A stretch of 15,371 nt of DNA from contig JALWJV010000229.1 of assembly GCA_026996955.1 (NCBI GenBank), positions 1 through 15,371 of the forward strand. Reading direction: 5' to 3'. How positions within the stretch are numbered: position 1 is the first letter of the stretch; every line of letters starts with the position of its first letter. Below, in pieces: positions 4,674-14,507 of the stretch. The DNA is from Deltaproteobacteria bacterium. Lineage in GTDB: Bacteria; Desulfobacterota; Dissulfuribacteria; Dissulfuribacterales; QOAL01. Under the pieces are notes generated by a model. That model was not told the origin of the DNA and did not search any database. It was given only the letters and a program-made list of their open reading frames with translations. A program made the position numbers and the translations under genes.

Positions 4674-4873
4674 TTAATGAAGGTTGGTAATTGGTCTTGT
4701 TTTTCCGTTCCGGTGAACAATTTCTTGTTTTTCTAAGGCTTGCTTCGCCAAAATCGCAAAACTCGCTCGTCCCTCGCTCAGACAGACGCGATTTTTTGGC
4801 TGCGCTTCGCCAAGAAAAACTACGAAATTCTTCAAAGTCACTCTAAAACAAGACCATTTACCACACTGAATAG
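4674..4873 (-). repeat. 200 bp MITE-like palindromic repeat, full copy B, inverted relative to copy A
   Basis: The reverse complement aligns end to end with 901-1100. I counted about 11 mismatches across the roughly 165 nt core. Terminal repeats are ttaatgaaggttggtaattggtcttgttttt and aaaacaagaccatttaccacactgaatag. It occupies most of the prfA-prmC spacer. Confidence 0.8.
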
Positions 4874-4937
4874 ATGCCTTCTTTTAAGCTTTTACAACAC
4901 CGGTAAAACGCAGTGTCAGGCATTGTGCCATTAATGA

Positions 4938-6400: not shown

Positions 6401-7456
6401 ATGTCCGACCTGACCATAAAAGATAAAAACAGGGCAGTTGACGCTGCCCTGAGCCAGATACAGAAACAGTTTGGAAAGGGCGCTGTAATGCGCCTTGGTG
6501 ACAAGGGGAGTGTTGAGGATGTAGCTGTTATTCCAACCGGTTCCATTGCCGTTGATATTGCAACAGGCGTAGGCGGGGTGCCAAGGGGAAGGATAGTGGA
6601 AATATTCGGACCCGAATCTTCAGGCAAGACCACCCTTGCACTTCACATTATTGCAGAGGCTCAGAAGTCAGGTGGCATTGCTGCCTTTATTGATGCAGAA
6701 CACGCAATGGACCCTGTTTATGCCTCAAAACTGGGGGTAAATACCGAAGACCTCCTCATATCACAGCCCGATTACGGCGAGCAGGCACTTGAGATAGCAG
6801 ATTCTCTGGTTAGAAGCGGTGCGCTGGATATCATAGTGATTGACTCTGTTGCCGCCCTTGTGCCAAAGGCAGAGATTGAGGGCGAAATGGGGGATACCCA
6901 TGTGGGCCTTCAGGCACGGCTCATGTCGCAGGCACTCAGGAAACTTACTGCCAATCTCAACAAGACCAACACCGTGCTTATTTTCATCAATCAGATTCGC
7001 ATGAAAATAGGCGTGATGTTTGGAAACCCCGAGACAACCACTGGCGGTAACGCCCTAAAATTTTACTCCACTATGCGCCTTGATATAAGGCGGACTGCAG
7101 CCCTGAAGGAAGGAGCAGACGTGATAGGCAACCGGACAAAGGTAAAGGTTGTAAAGAACAAGATTGCGCCTCCCTTCAAACAGGCTGAGTTTGATATCTA
7201 CTACGGAGAGGGGATTTCCAGGGAAAGCTCACTGCTGGACCTTGGGGTTGCCGTTGACATAATTGAAAAGAGCGGGGCATGGTACTCATATAACGGCGAG
7301 CGCATGGGGCAGGGCAGAGAGAATGTAAGGAATTTCATGAAGGAAAACCCTGAAATTACATCAGAGATAGAAAACCGGGTTCGTGAGGCCTATGGCCTGC
7401 CTCCCCTTGAAAAGACAACGACAGAGGCAGAAACTGAAGAGGCTGCCGACTCCTGA
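6401..7456 (+). CDS. recA: Recombinase RecA
   Basis: Near-perfect RecA collinearity, including Walker [11 protein letters not shown], the L1/L2 loop regions and an acidic C-terminal tail. The ORF track starts at 6389, but GGAGG at 6391-6395 sits 5 nt before ATG 6401. That start gives the typical N-terminus [17 protein letters not shown]. Confidence 0.97.
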
Positions 7457-10194: not shown

Positions 10195-10225
10195 TATCTT
10201 CTTTTGAATAATGAAGGTTAGATTA

Positions 10226-10307
10226 ATGCTCAAGGTATGATGCTCAAAGATAATGGTAGAGAAAATCATGCTTTTTTACTTTGGGCCTTGAGCTTTCATT
10301 TTGAGCT
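10226..10307. promoter_or_regulatory. Four copies of the hexamer GCTCAA/TTGAGC (two direct, then two inverted) upstream of the stressosome-type operon
   Basis: atGCTCAAgg at 10226-10235, atGCTCAAag at 10240-10249, ccTTGAGCt at 10286-10294 and TTGAGCt at 10301-10307. Spacing within each pair is 13-14 nt. The cluster ends about 40 nt before the ATG at 10346. Its function is unknown. Confidence 0.3.
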
Positions 10308-10345
10308 GTTTTTACATTACAAATGAATAAAAGGAGGGCTGTAAC

Positions 10346-11227
10346 ATGAACGAACTGAAGGACTACCAGAGTGACGAGGGCTTCCTGTTTGAAATCGTAA
10401 ATGCGGTTCCTTCAGGGATATTTGTTACAGACCTTGAGCACAACATCCTCATAATCAACAAGGCTGCCGCAGATATGGTGGGCCTTACGCCGGGTCAGTG
10501 TTTTGACCGCAAGTGTTATGAAATATTCAATACCAGCATGTGCGGCACTGACCAGTGCACATGCAGGGTGGCTATTGACAACAACCGGGTCAACCAGGGC
10601 CAGACCACGCTTCATGCTGAAAATGGCGAGGTGATAATAGAGTATGCAAGCCGTCCGTTAAGGAATCATGCCGGTGAAATAATAGGTTGCGTGGAACATT
10701 TTATTGATGTCTCTGCACGGGTCGCCCAGGAGGAGGCCATACTCCAGCAGCAGCGTGACCTGCTCAAGAAAAGAGAGGAGGACATACGGCATCTCCAGGA
10801 AGAGATACTTGAGCTCTCCACCCCGGTTGTAGAGGTGTGGGAAGGGGTGCTTGCGCTTCCTCTGATTGGCACCCTTGACAGTCACCGGGCAAGGAGCGCA
10901 ATGGAGCTCCTTCTGAATGAAATCGAGAAGACCCGTTCTCCCTATGTAATTATTGATATTACAGGTGTGCCAACGGTTGATACCGAGGTTGCAAACCATC
11001 TGCTTCAGACGGTTGATGCCGTGCGTCTCATGGGCAGTGAGGCTATCCTTACAGGTGTTTCAACCCATATCGCACTTACCATGGCCCATCTTGGTGTGGA
11101 ACTTGGCACAATAAAGGTGAGGAGCCGCATGGCAGACGCTCTTCATTTTGTGATCAGAAAGATGCATAAACGCCGTCAGGATACCCCGCTTACTGAGCTT
11201 ATACTGCAGGACGGCATGAAAAAATAA
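10346..11227 (+). CDS. RsbR-like stressosome sensor: N-terminal Cys-rich PAS domain, helical linker, C-terminal STAS domain
   Basis: 293 aa with GGAGG at 10333-10337, 8 nt upstream. PAS-like N-terminus (VPSGIFVTDLEHNILIINKAAADMVGL...GEIIGCVEHFIDVS). The RsbR-type STAS signature reads ELSTPVVEVWEGVLALPLIGTLDSHRA...IIDITGVPTVDTEVA...ILTGVSTHIALT. Thr213 and Thr245 lie at the positions of the B. subtilis RsbRA phosphosites. Confidence 0.85.
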   Translation: MNELKDYQSDEGFLFEIVNAVPSGIFVTDLEHNILIINKAAADMVGLTPGQCFDRKCYEIFNTSMCGTDQCTCRVAIDNNRVNQGQTTLHAENGEVIIEYASRPLRNHAGEIIGCVEHFIDVSARVAQEEAILQQQRDLLKKREEDIRHLQEEILELSTPVVEVWEGVLALPLIGTLDSHRARSAMELLLNEIEKTRSPYVIIDITGVPTVDTEVANHLLQTVDAVRLMGSEAILTGVSTHIALTMAHLGVELGTIKVRSRMADALHFVIRKMHKRRQDTPLTELILQDGMKK

Positions 11228-11293
11228 GAGCATCTTTAACTGTGTCATCCATTTACTTGCGCAAACCATGCCCCTGAAACCTGAAACGTACAG

Positions 11294-11710
11294 ATGACGC
11301 CCTTTTCCATATTCCCCATGCAGGATGTAATTATGGTCTCAATCCAGGAGGAGATTGATGACACCCATATTGCATCCCTGGTAAAGGCACTGAGCAGGCG
11401 GGTAAGGGAGACCCATGTACGCTTTGTAATCATTGATCTTCACGATGTTGAGGCAGTGGACACATTTCTTGCTGGAGAGATAGAAAAACTGGCCTCAATG
11501 CTGAATCTCCTCAGGGCATCAACCATTGTGGTGGGACTTTCTGTTCCTGCAGTCCTTACCCTGCTTGATTTTGGCATTCGTTTAAGGGGGGTGGAGTTTG
11601 CCCTGGATGTTGCCCAGGCACTTGAGAGAATCACTTCAGGTGCTGGAACAGACATGCCATACCCTGATGAGTTGGCCAGCATTACAGACAATCCACAGGG
11701 CGAAGGGTAG
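11294..11710 (+). CDS. RsbS-like single-domain STAS protein (stressosome scaffold)
   Basis: 138 aa. DVIMVSIQEEIDD...VRFVIIDLHDVEAVDTFLAGE...STIVVGLSVPAVLTLLDFGI is collinear with RsbS. Thr57 (codon 11462-11464) is at the position of the RsbS Ser59 phosphoacceptor. Confidence 0.85.
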   Translation: MTPFSIFPMQDVIMVSIQEEIDDTHIASLVKALSRRVRETHVRFVIIDLHDVEAVDTFLAGEIEKLASMLNLLRASTIVVGLSVPAVLTLLDFGIRLRGVEFALDVAQALERITSGAGTDMPYPDELASITDNPQGEG

Positions 11711-11716
11711 TCACAG

Positions 11717-12127
11717 GTGTTTACTGACAGAAGCCGGTACTGTGCCCCGGTAAGTCCAGGCACAGGGATAGTGCCTGCCAGGATCATGGCGCGCTCCCTT
11801 CTGAAACGCCTGAACATTAATGAGCCAGCAAGGGCAGAGGTGCTGCTGCTTGTAAACGAACTTGCTACAAACATCATAAGGCATGGACTGGAGGGTGAAC
11901 TCTGTATCTTCCCGGTAACTGCAGAGGGCTATACAGGTTTTCTCATAAGGGCAACTGACCGGGGACCTGGCATCAAGGATCTTGAAACTGCGCTTAAACC
12001 AGGCATTTCACAGGACAATGGCCTGGGCCTGGGACTATCAGCCATAAAACGCATTGCAGACGATGTGAGGATATCAAGCATGATTGAGGGGGGAACACAG
12101 GTGGAGGTCTGGAAATGGCTGAGCTGA
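11717..12127 (+). CDS. RsbT-like GHKL serine/threonine kinase (stressosome switch kinase)
   Basis: 136 aa with a GTG start 6 nt after the previous stop. N-box NELATNIIRHG, G1 DRGPGI, G2 NGLGLGLS and C-terminal GTQVEVWKWL all match the RsbT/RsbW-type HATPase_c_2 pattern. Confidence 0.85.
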   Translation: MFTDRSRYCAPVSPGTGIVPARIMARSLLKRLNINEPARAEVLLLVNELATNIIRHGLEGELCIFPVTAEGYTGFLIRATDRGPGIKDLETALKPGISQDNGLGLGLSAIKRIADDVRISSMIEGGTQVEVWKWLS

Positions 12128-13182
12128 GCATGCAGCCAGTATGGAAGGAGCTTCCAGTGGCCTCCTCTGCTGATGTCCCCATCATAAGGCGGGCTGTTGG
12201 TAATATAGCGCTTAATTTGGGCTTTTCAGAAAAGAGACAGGCAGAGGTGGTGCTTGCGGCAAGTGAACTTGCCCAGAATCACGTAAATTTCAACACTGTC
12301 AAGGGACGAATCCTGATCTCCGGCCTGTTTTCAGGAAAAACCTCCTTCATTACCATATTTTCCACAGATCATGGCCCCGGCATTAATAATCTTCCCCAGG
12401 CACTTGAAGATGGCATTACCACAGGAAACAGCTATGGGAACGGGCTTGGCACGGTGCGCCGCCTGGCAGATGATTTTTCAATATGTTCAGGCTCTGCTGG
12501 CTCCATGGCCTGTTTCCCTGAACTGCTCTCCCCTGAAGGCACCGGAACCATTGTAGCCGCCTCATTTTCAAGTGACAGCTCTGTCCTTTCGCCGAAAATT
12601 ACTGTCTCTGCCCTTGCCTGCCCAAAGAGGGGAGAGCTCTTTTGCGGGGATGGAATTTACATGGAACAGAGCGGGGATACCTTGCTGATTGTGCTCGCAG
12701 ATGTTCTGGGTCATGGAAAGGAGGCAGCAGAATCTATTGAAACGCTCTGGGACATCCTTGAACTCCTTGATCCGTCTGCTGAACTTTCAAACACCGTGTG
12801 TACCCTTGACAGGGGCCTTGCCGGAAAACGCGGCATGGCATGTCTGTTCATGCGGATTGATCTTGCCAGCGGCATGCTGCAGGCATGCAGCGTGGGAAAC
12901 ATCCGTGCATGCCTTCATGACGGAACCAGGCAGTTTGCAATTGCATCGCTCCCCGGGGTCATTGGCCAGAAGATAAACTGCCGGAAGGTTATGGTGCAGG
13001 AGGTTTTGCTTGCAAGCGGGACAACCTGCCTGATCTTTTCTGACGGCATTGATTCCTCAGCCTTTGCCGCAAGGATAAGAAACAGTATGCATCCTTTGTT
13101 CCAGACATATCTTGCATTTAAGACAGCCCTGTCCCCCTGGGATGATGCGTCGATAATAGCGTGGAGATGGCAGAAACCATAA
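12115..13182 (+). CDS. Fusion protein: RsbT-like kinase domain (N-terminal) plus PP2C/SpoIIE-family phosphatase (C-terminal, RsbX-like)
   Basis: 355 aa. GGAGG at 12103-12107 lies 7 nt before the ATG, and the ORF overlaps the upstream gene by 13 nt. The N-terminal half has an intact N-box (ASELAQNHVNF), DHGPGI and GNGLGTVRRLADDF. After a Ser-rich linker, the C-terminal half has PP2C metal-site motifs (CGDGIY, LIVLADVLGHGKEAA, LIFSDGI, DDASIIAW). Confidence 0.8.
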   Translation: MAELSMQPVWKELPVASSADVPIIRRAVGNIALNLGFSEKRQAEVVLAASELAQNHVNFNTVKGRILISGLFSGKTSFITIFSTDHGPGINNLPQALEDGITTGNSYGNGLGTVRRLADDFSICSGSAGSMACFPELLSPEGTGTIVAASFSSDSSVLSPKITVSALACPKRGELFCGDGIYMEQSGDTLLIVLADVLGHGKEAAESIETLWDILELLDPSAELSNTVCTLDRGLAGKRGMACLFMRIDLASGMLQACSVGNIRACLHDGTRQFAIASLPGVIGQKINCRKVMVQEVLLASGTTCLIFSDGIDSSAFAARIRNSMHPLFQTYLAFKTALSPWDDASIIAWRWQKP

Positions 13183-14507
13183 CAAAAAGAGTACACATCC
13201 TCACCCTGGTTATTAAAAACCGAAGGGATATTCCCCTGGTGCGCGGAAAGGCCAAGCATCTTGTAAGGCTCTGCAGCATGAGCAGGGTGGACCGGGCAAG
13301 GGTGGCAGTGTCTGCATCTGAGATGGCGCGATACCTGCTGGAACACACATCCGGGGGCTCTGTATCGTTTCTTCTGGTTTGCTGCAATCCGGCATGCGCC
13401 ACAGACAGGGATGATTCCTGTGCAGGGATCCTGCTGAAATTCAAGGGGAACCACGTTTTCAAAAAAGATGATATGAAAAATCAGGGTGCAATGGCTCCAA
13501 ACCTCTATGCCTTTCCCCCAATGGAGACAAGAAGGCCATTTGATGGCATTGGTAAGGCAATGGACAGCCTTAAAATCATCAAAAACGGCATAAGGGAACC
13601 CCTGGAGCTTGATATAATCAAGTGGGGGGTGAAAAAAACATGGGAAGAGCTTGTTGCATCAAACGAATTCTTAAGAAAAAAGCTCTTTCGTAACGCTGAA
13701 GAATCGTTCATAGCAAACCTCAGGGCAAAACATGATGAGGTGCTGAAGCTTCTTGATGAGCTTTCGCAAAAAAACAGGGAGCTTGACCGTGCCAACAAGG
13801 AGCTCATGCAGCTCAGCAATGACCTGGAAATCCTCACCCATGAACGGACAATGTCAGAGATCGCCCTGAAGGTGGCAGACCGCATAAGAAATCCTGCTAC
13901 GGCAATTGGTGGCCTGACCCTTGTCCTACTAAAAAAAGCACCGAAAGACAAATGGTTACAGGAAAAACTTGAGGCAATTTTTCATGAGGCAAAACGCCTT
14001 GAGAAAATTGTAAAGGACTTTGATTCCCTTGCTGCTGCCAAGTCCAAGAGTTTTGAAAAGGTGGACCTGAGGGAGATTGTAAAGACGGTCCTCGAGACCC
14101 TCTCCACCAATTTTCAGCAAAGGGATATAAAGGTAAATGAAAAATTTATAGATGAGCCGGTAATTGCCCTTGTAAACCGCCAGACCATCAAGGTGGCATT
14201 GCTCCACATACTGAGAAATGCCATTGAGGCATCACCAAATGGAGGCATCATAGACGTTACGGTCTGGAGGCGTGATGGCAAGCCGTTCATATCTGTGAGA
14301 GATTATGGACCTGGAATTTCACAGGACATCCAGGAAAAACTGTTTAAGAAGACTGTTACCACAAAGGCAACCGGAACAGGCATGGGACTGATGACAGTCA
14401 AGCAGATAATGGATGAACACAAGGGCAAGATAGAGATAAAGAGCGGAAGGGAACCCGGTCAGGGTACAGAGGCCATCATGTTCTTTCCTGTGCGCTGGAG
14501 CGAATAG
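13161..14507 (+). CDS. Histidine-kinase-like protein: degenerate RsbT-like N-terminal domain, coiled coil, DHp helix with Asp in place of the phosphoacceptor His, and an intact HATPase_c domain
   Basis: 448 aa, overlapping the upstream gene by 22 nt. The start may be GTG 13161 or ATG 13167. Residues 1-155 align to the RsbT pattern but lack ATP-binding motifs. Residues 165-230 are heptad-rich (LRAKHDEVLKLLDELSQKNRELDRANKELMQLSNDLEIL). The H-box reads VADRIRNPATAIGG. The catalytic domain has the N box HILRNAIEAS, G1 DYGPGI, F LFKK and G2 GTGMGL. Confidence 0.8.
   Translation: MEMAETITKRVHILTLVIKNRRDIPLVRGKAKHLVRLCSMSRVDRARVAVSASEMARYLLEHTSGGSVSFLLVCCNPACATDRDDSCAGILLKFKGNHVFKKDDMKNQGAMAPNLYAFPPMETRRPFDGIGKAMDSLKIIKNGIREPLELDIIKWGVKKTWEELVASNEFLRKKLFRNAEESFIANLRAKHDEVLKLLDELSQKNRELDRANKELMQLSNDLEILTHERTMSEIALKVADRIRNPATAIGGLTLVLLKKAPKDKWLQEKLEAIFHEAKRLEKIVKDFDSLAAAKSKSFEKVDLREIVKTVLETLSTNFQQRDIKVNEKFIDEPVIALVNRQTIKVALLHILRNAIEASPNGGIIDVTVWRRDGKPFISVRDYGPGISQDIQEKLFKKTVTTKATGTGMGLMTVKQIMDEHKGKIEIKSGREPGQGTEAIMFFPVRWSE

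Follow-up and report, generated by a model that had tools for sequence, protein, structure and literature searches.

How does a stressosome pass on its signal when the genes of the sigma-B cascade are missing from its surroundings? The question is raised by five co-oriented open reading frames (ORF1 to ORF5) in a 15,371-nucleotide (nt) stretch of DNA, hereafter the window, which comprises positions 1 to 15,371 of contig JALWJV010000229.1 from the assembly GCA_026996955.1 of a sulfur-cycling Deltaproteobacteria bacterium (Desulfobacterota, Dissulfuribacterales). A preliminary description, made from the letters alone, had read these genes as a self-contained stressosome variant with an atypical output end, in which the signal runs through a cascade of RsbT paralogues. 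Our analysis supports the stressosome part and leads to another view of the output: with a probability of roughly one half, we favour a stressosome derived from an RsbR-RsbS-RsbT-RsbX (RSTX) module and wired to a two-component-type output, in which ORF5 would be a docking, kinase-dead phosphatase or binder for a response regulator encoded at an unlinked site.

The layout of the operon, with junctions of +66, +6, -13 and -22 nt between the five genes, was reproduced exactly. For comparison, a motif-guided scan with one genome per species yielded 70 loci. No gene for RsbU, RsbV, RsbW, a sigma factor or a response regulator is found in the window, and none of rsbU, rsbV, rsbW or sigB is conserved in the flanks of the approximately 70 related loci. 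The lack of sigma-B partner-switching genes, first noted for the window, thus extends to its relatives and, within the window and these flanks, the operon is not a sigma-B cascade with the RsbU-RsbV-RsbW-SigB linkage. None of the five ORFs has an NCBIfam equivalog.

The first two genes correspond to the stressosome core. In Pfam, ORF1 matches PAS_4 (7e-14) and STAS (3e-13), and its STAS domain aligns with RsbR structures from Vibrio vulnificus (7o0i_B, E 1.2e-27) and Listeria (6qcm, E 4e-26); ORF2 matches STAS (4e-9) and the RsbS structures 6qcm_A (E 4e-15) and, from Bacillus subtilis, 6jhk (E 7e-15). The threonines singled out earlier fall where they were expected, T213 and T245 of ORF1 on the RsbR threonines of Listeria and Vibrio, and T57 of ORF2 on the RsbS serine of Listeria and B. 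subtilis. Both ORF1 positions are Thr in 25/25 five-gene loci (in four- and three-gene versions of the operon, 213 is mostly Ala or Ser and 245 mostly Val or Ile), and position 57 of ORF2 is Ser or Thr in 62/62 homologues. Alignment shows ORF1 and ORF2 as homologues of RsbR and RsbS with their predicted phospho-acceptor residues intact.

The sensor part of ORF1 carries a cluster of cysteines with the spacing C-x4-C-x8-C-x4-C-x-C, plus C115. Across all operon versions, five of the six cysteines are invariant in 59/59 homologues and the remaining one, C73, is present in 58/59. By analogy with the PAS domain of Desulfovibrio OrpR, which carries a [4Fe-4S] cluster (C52, C61, C65; PMC8359166), the ORF1 cluster is a plausible candidate for an iron-sulfur or metal redox-sensing site, cofactor binding being inferred.

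The kinase and phosphatase functions expected in an RSTX module are represented by ORF3 and ORF4. ORF3 matches HATPase_c_2 (1.4e-13), its N-box (E48, N52), G1 (D81-G83-G85) and G2 motifs are intact, and it aligns without gaps to B. subtilis RsbT at 33% identity (E 7e-25). The N-terminal half of ORF4 matches the ORF3 family with an hhalign probability of 99.4%, which bears out the earlier proposal of a second intact RsbT-like domain at residues 17-129, and its kinase residues E51, N55 and D85-G87-G89 are kept in nearly all 62 homologues. The same is true of D179, D196, D310 and D343/D344 in its PP2C domain, whose best PDB matches are Moorella MtX (3zt9, E 1.3e-12) and B. subtilis RsbX (3w40, E 2.8e-11). 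The motifs show ORF3 and the ORF4 N-domain as two distinct RsbT-type Ser/Thr kinases, both predicted to be catalytically intact, and the ORF4 C-domain as an RsbX-type PP2C in which every metal-binding Asp is kept. A recent duplication of the ORF4 N-domain as the origin of ORF3 was ruled out, as the two form separate clades with 23-24% identity between them versus 38-47% within; both clades are old. With PAS, STAS, HATPase_c_2 and SpoIIE/PP2C domains and the structural matches to RsbR, RsbS and MtX/RsbX in place, the proposed module stands: on every point that sequence can address, the five-gene module belongs to the RSTX stressosome family.

The ORF4 fusion itself had been regarded as atypical, and this part of the description has to be given up. 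At least 200 database clusters contain an RsbT-like::PP2C fusion of the ORF4 architecture at E<=1e-15, under the NCBI name 'ATP-binding SpoIIE family protein phosphatase'; the family proteins, like ORF4, have HATPase_c_2 followed by SpoIIE/PP2C and are about 330-385 amino acids (aa) long. In Streptomyces, Planctomycetota and further stressosome-like loci whose outputs are different, a kinase::PP2C fusion comes after RsbR-RsbS(-RsbT), at the place of RsbX. As examples, in Streptomyces ambofaciens a GAF-PP2C gene comes after the fusion, and a Planctomycetota contig encodes a protoglobin-RsbR but not a separate RsbT, with a PP2C::kinase and a STAS gene downstream. Since the fusion is so widespread, and follows RsbR-RsbS in many loci, ORF4 is ordinary. 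HsbR of Pseudomonas reportedly also joins an RsbW-like kinase and a PP2C in one protein that acts on a STAS protein. SypE of Vibrio fischeri likewise combines an RsbW-like kinase with a PP2C and has a STAS target, as the substrates of ORF4 are presumed to be (PMC10120452). Unlike SypE and HsbR, ORF4 has no receiver domain (Pfam gave no Response_reg match, so ORF4 is not a response regulator of their type), its PP2C is of the RsbX type, and it belongs to a stressosome operon instead of a single-STAS partner switch.

The less usual part of the operon is ORF5, which begins with a third RsbT-like domain. Pfam does not detect this domain, but it was recovered by more sensitive comparisons, as the preliminary description had anticipated. 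The ORF5 N-terminal family matches the ORF3 family with an hhalign probability of 96.9% (E 1.9e-10, 124 columns), and a whole-library profile search gives matches beyond the family that include small RsbT/RsbW kinases. Residues 1-173 were modelled by AlphaFold2 with a predicted local distance difference test (pLDDT) of 85 and a predicted template modelling score (pTM) of 0.81, and the best PDB matches of the model in Foldseek are only GHKL proteins that partner STAS proteins, namely SpoIIAB, RsbW, UsfX and SiaB. The position of the N-box Asn is Y58 in ORF5 and Y, F, L, M, I or W across the family, the G1 motif (DxGxG) reads F-K-G-N-H, and G2 is missing. Profile and model together confirm an RsbT/RsbW-type domain with its ATP-binding motifs lost, which we therefore call a predicted pseudo-RsbT domain.

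What this domain has kept are residues R28, E54 and R57, which are invariant in the family. R28 occupies the position of the STAS-docking Arg of SpoIIAB (R20) and SypE (R22), and E54 is the N-box Glu. In the predicted SypA-SypE structure, Arg22 and Glu48 of SypE hydrogen-bond to the STAS protein at an acidic patch and at the phosphorylatable Ser, and according to that study the predicted interface hardly differs from those solved for SpoIIAA-SpoIIAB and RsbV-RsbW (PMC10120452).

The second half of ORF5 has the fold of a histidine kinase, a dimerization and histidine phosphotransfer (DHp) domain followed by a catalytic and ATP-binding (CA) domain. It is closest to ZraS (9jfj, E 1.2e-23), AtoS is also close, and DivL (4q20) is among the fold matches; in the full-length structure model, residues 179-259 form one continuous helix. 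The domains anticipated for the operon were all found in Pfam (PAS, STAS, HATPase_c_2, SpoIIE and HATPase_c) with the exception of HisKA, for which ORF5 reached 24.6 bits, just under the gathering score of 26.9. In agreement with the first reading of the sequence, D240 aligns with the phospho-His of ZraS. This replacement is a property of the whole group: Asp stands for His in 32/32 database homologues and in 65/66 ORF5 homologues, and D240, R243, N244 and P245 are invariant in 63/63 operon-linked homologues and in 8/8 half-length homologues from Nitrospirae. The position after it (H+1, counted from the phospho-His) is R241 in ORF5; every operon-linked homologue has R, K, Q or S there, never an acid, and an acid is likewise absent from this position in the 32 database homologues and the eight from Nitrospirae. 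The CA boxes are intact in the window, with N (N353), G1 (D381-G383-G385), F (F395) and G2 (G405-G407-G409), as they are in 28/28 five-gene loci, and are degenerate in 26/33 smaller loci (24/31 four-gene and 2/2 three-gene).

Of the features that define a HisKA-type kinase, ORF5 thus lacks the phospho-His and the acidic H+1 and keeps a Thr/Asn at H+4 and the CA boxes. A cognate response regulator was found neither in the window nor conserved near ORF5 across the related loci. Given that the defining residue of a histidine kinase, the phospho-His, is absent, ORF5 should be filed as a putative histidine pseudokinase, a DHp-CA fold conserved under selection. In HisKA proteins, the H+1 acid is needed for kinase activity and the H+4 Thr/Asn for phosphatase activity (PMC3510030). 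In CrdS, a HisKA kinase of the NtrB family, the H371A variant retains phosphatase activity, E372A abolishes the kinase activity only, and N375A abolishes the phosphatase activity (PMC3510030). Since both the His and the H+1 acid are missing, the ORF5 DHp is predicted not to act as a kinase. In CheZ and NarX, the phosphatase motif D-x3-Q has the same spacing as D240-x3-N244 (PMC3510030).

All five genes are under strong purifying selection. Against the closest relative, a metagenome-assembled genome (MAG) labelled 'Deltaproteobacteria bacterium' (WGBG01000158.1, locus L007) with 93-95% DNA identity to the window, the ratio of nonsynonymous to synonymous substitution rates (dN/dS) is 0.016-0.14 for the five genes, with 0.016 for ORF1 and 0.053 for ORF5, and no ORF5 domain exceeds 0.10. 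This rules out a decaying pseudogene. Two other candidates were weighed as well. One is H191 (13731-13733), an invariant His in the motif ENLRAKHEE that lies 49 residues upstream of D240. As a replacement phospho-acceptor it is ruled out, as it sits about 13 helical turns from D240 on the one continuous helix, is Asn in the class with an intact RsbT-like domain and histidine kinase, and is also present in the His-bearing relative P0144/L049. The other, that the ORF5 CA domain is a kinase for the RsbR Thr sites, is unsupported, since in four-gene loci the intactness of CA does not track RsbR positions 213 and 245.

A simpler interpretation would be that the operon is an ordinary RSTX module with a Vibrio-type two-component output and that ORF5 is a sensor kinase we have misread. 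That RSTX modules can feed two-component systems is well established (PMC9237108, PMC10014275), and databases label the ORF5 homologues 'sensor histidine kinase'. However, the His and the adjacent acid are absent in 63/63 operon-linked homologues, no receiver gene is present in the window, and in Vibrio the D1 protein has about 1,060 aa and is followed by D2, with an RsbX described as single-domain (PMC9237108, PMC10014275), which makes this interpretation very unlikely. The Asp might, on the other hand, be a phospho-acceptor in its own right, with D240 receiving an acyl-phosphate from its own CA domain or from a heterodimer partner kinase and passing it to a receiver. The strict invariance of the Asp would fit this, as the equivalent residue of PsmA varies (E/D/Q/V/Y; PMC12963549), and so would the intact CA motifs in the five-gene clade and in Nitrospirae and Tll0287-type relatives, as well as the bona fide PAS-HisKA kinase that follows ORF5 in about nine Desulfobulbaceae loci. 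Yet the Asp is still invariant in the 26/33 four- and three-gene loci where CA is degenerate, and the acidic H+1 needed for kinase chemistry is absent. We know of no precedent for acyl-phosphate chemistry of an Asp in a DHp domain, and phosphate transfer through D240 is, of all the alternatives, the one to which we give hardly any probability.

The distribution of the operon bears on the question of which gene delivers the output. Full-length ORF5 relatives are confined to Thermodesulfobacteriota (62/62), where they occur in Desulfobulbia, Dissulfuribacterales and MAGs labelled Thermodesulfatator. When a profile of the ORF5 N-domain was run against 1.84 billion representative proteins, about 20 clusters (50% identity) of the window's type were found, so the family is narrow. 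The operon occurs in three versions: ORF1-2-3-4-5 in 25 complete loci, including the window's clade; ORF1-2-4-5, without the separate RsbT, in 31 loci; and ORF1-2-5 in two loci (L055, L062). Judged from these gene complements, the constant core is RsbR, RsbS and ORF5, and ORF3 and ORF4 appear dispensable. The comparison also hints that the two RsbR threonines, complete in the five-gene loci, belong with ORF3. The proposed cascade of RsbT paralogues does not fit this pattern, as ORF3 is absent from 31 operons and both ORF3 and ORF4 from two, and ORF5 is always retained; ORF5 therefore looks like a direct client of RsbR and RsbS and not like the last step of a cascade. Nor is the system self-contained: since the operon encodes no effector and ORF5 has no phospho-accepting His, the output must be an unlinked partner.

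This pattern also weighs on a reading in which ORF5 is a decoy or anti-kinase. Here the ATP-dead domain would compete with the true kinases for docking on RsbS, the DHp-CA part would only dimerise, and released ORF3, as RsbT, would act on an unlinked RsbU-like target that possibly feeds a sigma factor. The pseudo-domain does retain the docking residues and not the catalytic ones, ORF3 is a good RsbT homologue, and the search for rsbU, rsbV and rsbW was confined to the window and the locus flanks. But a decoy is hard to reconcile with the retention of ORF5 in the 31 operons without ORF3 and in the two without either kinase; in addition, the invariant R243, N244 and P245 together with the signaling helix (S-helix) amount to more constraint than dimerisation requires, and an RsbU_N-type gene is near none of the loci. 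We consider a decoy role unlikely.

The five-gene domain order is not unique to the window. The neighbourhood search found the same gene and domain order in L077 (GCA_002093115.1) and L078, both fusions included, with a fifth gene of the intact type RsbT-like::HisKA(His)::HATPase_c, and in L077 a REC-PAS-HATPase-REC protein comes after it. Unlike that of the window, the fifth protein of these loci has kept both the motifs of its RsbT-like domain (SELARN, DxGxG) and a genuine H-box (SHEFRTPL), and in place of PAS the sensor is RsbRD_N. Compared with it, ORF5 is a derivative inactivated twice over. The ORF5 N-domain profile recovered intact RsbT-like::HisKA(His)::HATPase_c(-REC) proteins in more than 25 additional clusters, and the intermediates P0129, P0144/L049 and P0161 combine a degenerate N-domain with a real His. 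Because the same order exists with an intact fifth gene, the window's operon is, as far as comparison of the genes tells, a derived, inactivated branch of a broader architecture, restricted to Thermodesulfobacteriota.

These intact relatives are of relevance for one more alternative, a reversed flow of information like that in DivL, which lacks the His and uses its catalytic core to sense DivK~P (PMC4211667). In this scheme, the ORF5 DHp-CA part would sense a phosphorylated regulator and signal via the coiled coil to the pseudo-RsbT domain, which would alter the access of ORF3 and ORF4 to RsbS and RsbR, the real output lying elsewhere. The DivL precedent (PMC4211667), the presence of DivL among the fold matches of ORF5 (4q20), the ATP-binding motifs kept by CA in the window's clade and the lack of a regulator in the operon all agree with it. 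Set against this, the three-gene version (L055, L062) has no kinase or phosphatase to modulate and no other candidate output, and the intact relatives, ordinary kinases with receiver proteins after them, speak for a forward flow. A reversed flow is thus improbable.

Several observations concern further relatives of ORF5. The closest relative that bears a His is L049 (from a Desulfobulbaceae MAG), together with P0144, with the motif 'KVAHEIRNP', an intact CA and a diverged N-domain; no STAS genes were found near L049, which may represent an ancestral or a reverted state. In Nitrospirae (L065, L067, L069-L072, L075, L076), membrane-anchored proteins have an Asp-type H-box (ADRVRNP) and an intact CA. 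Most of their genes lie downstream of an NfeD gene, an SPFH/stomatin gene and a small gene. The Asp-type DHp is not tied to stressosomes in this group. Metagenomic proteins (P0055-P0062, P0040) have an Asp-type DHp ('KVADRIRNP') fused to a Tll0287-like (PF11845) or PAS sensor. These are additional architectures of what may be a separate DHp family without the His. Among the loci labelled Thermodesulfatator (L013-L030, L042), genes for a large protein (about 530-840 aa, no Pfam match) and a DUF1318 protein (about 190 aa) lie 3' of ORF5 on the same strand in 17 loci, and could be clade-specific partners.

The favoured reading, a stressosome with a two-component-type output through ORF5, would work as follows. 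RsbR and RsbS would build the STAS core, and the Cys cluster in the PAS domain of ORF1 would sense redox state or a metal. ORF3 and the N-domain of ORF4 would phosphorylate T57 of RsbS and T213/T245 of RsbR, and the PP2C domain of ORF4 would reset the system. As the output, ORF5 would bind unphosphorylated RsbS through its pseudo-RsbT domain as RsbT does, with R28 docking and E54 facing the phosphorylatable Ser, and phosphorylation would release or re-orient it. The change would run along the S-helix coiled coil into the DHp, which, without autophosphorylation, would dephosphorylate or sequester an unlinked response regulator. A role as phosphatase or sequesterer is proposed because the H+4 Asn and the H+5 Pro are kept and because D-x3-N is like the D-x3-Q of CheZ and NarX. 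The target would probably be of the NtrC type, since the ORF5 core is akin to ZraS, AtoS and NtrB. Both ZraS and AtoS pair with NtrC-type regulators, and in five loci (four distinct contigs) the operon has a sigma54-type response regulator and a PilS-like kinase directly before it; in three more, these two lie a few genes at most from the ORF5-type gene. By analogy, the intact relatives, in which an RsbT-like::His-kinase is followed by a receiver protein, may show the ancestral logic of this output role.

Some points weigh against this reading. The docking of ORF5 on RsbS is suggested by homology and two conserved contact residues. The genes flanking the operon vary among loci; a response regulator is absent from the window and is not conserved next to the operon. 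The ORF5 DHp is identical to that of the adjacent PilS-like kinases at only 13-19 of 74 residues, which gives no indication of a shared regulator. All ATP-binding motifs of the CA domain are present in the window's clade (28/28), something that a model of a pure phosphatase or scaffold does not call for. In addition, the replacement is never Glu, Asn or Gln, which suggests a specific chemical role for the Asp that the model does not fully explain.

One of the closest known systems is VvRsbRSTX with VvD1/VvD2 of V. vulnificus, which shares with the window the R-S-T-X order, the phospho-sites and the lack of a sigma-B cascade (PMC9237108, PMC10014275). It also has a kinase-like gene directly downstream, and its RsbR STAS is the best PDB match of ORF1 (7o0i_B). 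Unlike in Vibrio, the sensor in the window is a Cys-rich PAS domain and not a globin, the PP2C shares one protein with a second RsbT-like kinase domain, and the downstream protein has 448 aa with a pseudo-RsbT domain and Asp for His, with no receiver or cyclic di-GMP gene after it. In Moorella thermoacetica, MtR-MtS-MtT-MtX-MtG is likewise an RSTX module with a non-sigma output, and MtX is the best match of the ORF4 PP2C; however, the sensor is again a different one, the output there is a GGDEF enzyme (diguanylate cyclase), and MtX, with 193 aa, consists of the PP2C domain alone. For the kinase core of ORF5, parallels are DivL of Caulobacter (Tyr for His) and PsmA of Streptomyces (variable residue), both with a conserved DHp-CA that lacks the phospho-His (PMC4211667, PMC12963549). 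In contrast to these, the replacement in ORF5 is strictly Asp and the CA motifs are intact in the window's clade; PsmA lacks the phosphatase Asn at H+4 that ORF5 retains (PMC12963549). Moreover, ORF5 is coupled to STAS proteins, and DivL and PsmA to PAS/CckA or DivIVA. The literature search returned nothing on Desulfobacterota stressosomes or on RsbT-like::histidine kinase fusions (stressosome reviews of 2005 and 2017, which possibly show such fusions, were outside its range), and as far as found the RsbT-like::His-kinase five-gene architecture is uncharacterised. The ORF4 fusion is already common, and the ORF5 type is derived from a wider architecture.

Table 1. Coordinates of the five genes and of the domains and sites discussed in the text (positions in the window).
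Feature	Position	Strand	Description
Intergenic leader alaS/ORF1	10195..10345	+	AT-rich; ribosome-binding site AAAGGAGGG 8 nt before ATG
ORF1	10346-11227	+	293 aa, RsbR-type co-antagonist (predicted): PAS sensor, helical linker, STAS
Cys cluster in ORF1 PAS	10499-10690	+	C52, C57, C66, C71, C73, C115 (residues 52-115)
ORF1 T213 and T245	10982-10984, 11078-11080	+	aligned with the pair of phospho-Thr sites in RsbR from Listeria and Vibrio
ORF2	11294-11710	+	138 aa, RsbS-type single-STAS scaffold (predicted)
ORF2 T57	11462-11464	+	putative phospho-acceptor, aligned with Ser of Listeria and B. subtilis RsbS
ORF3	11717-12127	+	136 aa, RsbT-type GHKL Ser/Thr kinase (predicted)
ORF4	12115-13182	+	355 aa, RsbT-like kinase::RsbX-type PP2C fusion (predicted)
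ORF4 kinase domain	12163-12501 (residues 17-129)	+	HATPase_c_2 (5.5e-8), RsbT-like
ORF4 PP2C domain	12595-13179 (residues ~161-355)	+	RsbX-type; Pfam SpoIIE/PP2C at 187-313 (2e-10)
ORF5	13161-14507	+	448 aa, putative histidine pseudokinase with N-terminal pseudo-RsbT domain
ORF5 N-domain	13185..13631 (residues 9-157)	+	RsbT/RsbW fold, predicted ATP-dead
ORF5 coiled coil/S-helix into DHp	13695..14045	+	ERT at 228-230; DHp helix 2 = residues 264-295
ORF5 H-box A-D240-R-I-R-N244-P245	13878-13895	+	D240 codon GAC, 13878-13880
ORF5 CA (HATPase_c) domain	14055..14483	+	Pfam 7e-20

The operon is preceded by an OmpA-family gene, rho, rpmE, prfA, prmC, rpsU (minus strand), recA and alaS, and followed by a convergent parB. 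Its promoter is presumed to lie within the leader between alaS and ORF1, where a sigma-70 scan found no site; promoter and terminator scans around the operon gave nothing convincing, and in the window neither the Rfam nor the tRNA scan produced a hit. Within the leader, at 10226-10256, a short imperfect direct repeat (ATGCTCAAGG TATG ATGCTCAAAG) could be an operator or be due to chance. The start of ORF5 is probably not the GTG but the ATG at 13167, two codons further on, because homologues and the database product P0016 begin there; an exact-sequence look-up of ORF5 gave no match, P0016 beginning two residues later. With this start, the last overlap would become -16.

Repeats and insertions were observed in and around the window. 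A 206-nt inverted repeat pair, 90% complementary, lies at 894-1099 (between the OmpA-family gene and rho) and 4675-4880 (between prfA and prmC), and by its appearance is a dispersed element like a miniature inverted-repeat transposable element, without an Rfam match. Positions 1-148 of the window are a second dispersed repeat with copies in L007 at 6911-7058 and 1843-1985; there, rsbR and rsbS are separated by an insertion of 208 nt that consists mostly of a copy with 94% identity, apart from which the L007 operon appears intact. In L001 (5295-6162) and L009, a nucleotidyltransferase/HepT-like toxin-antitoxin pair, absent from the window, is inserted between alaS and rsbR.

Outside Bacillales, most of the proteins encoded downstream of stressosomes have no RsbU_N domain, and binding between VvRsbT and VvD1 was not detected (PMC9237108). 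The operon described here suggests how stressosomes could couple directly to two-component signalling, and for the hand-over of the signal outside Bacillales, that the output protein may carry its own RsbT-like docking domain. Tentatively, and with a probability that we put well below one half, the observations can be joined further: RsbT-like domains on kinase cores would be the missing physical link between stressosome and two-component system, the downstream 'kinase' itself, and not free RsbT, docking on the STAS core, and the Thermodesulfobacteriota client would be a new DHp class, with a strict Asp in D-x3-N, acting as a stressosome-gated regulator phosphatase (less likely as an acyl-phosphate relay) and belonging to a general, unrecognised family. 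The generality of such a signalling family is proposed because the Asp-type DHp is also found on membrane, PAS and Tll0287-like sensor modules. Since the docking residues are kept and catalysis is predicted to be lost, and the operon exists in five-, four- and three-gene versions, it would be a convenient system to separate binding from phosphorylation. On the input side, the PAS domain with its invariant Cys residues points to a redox or metal signal, and identified input signals of stressosomes are still rare. On the output side, a strictly conserved Asp for His in the DHp, combined with the phosphatase Asn that is still present, could mark a family of 'kinases' devoted to phosphatase function.

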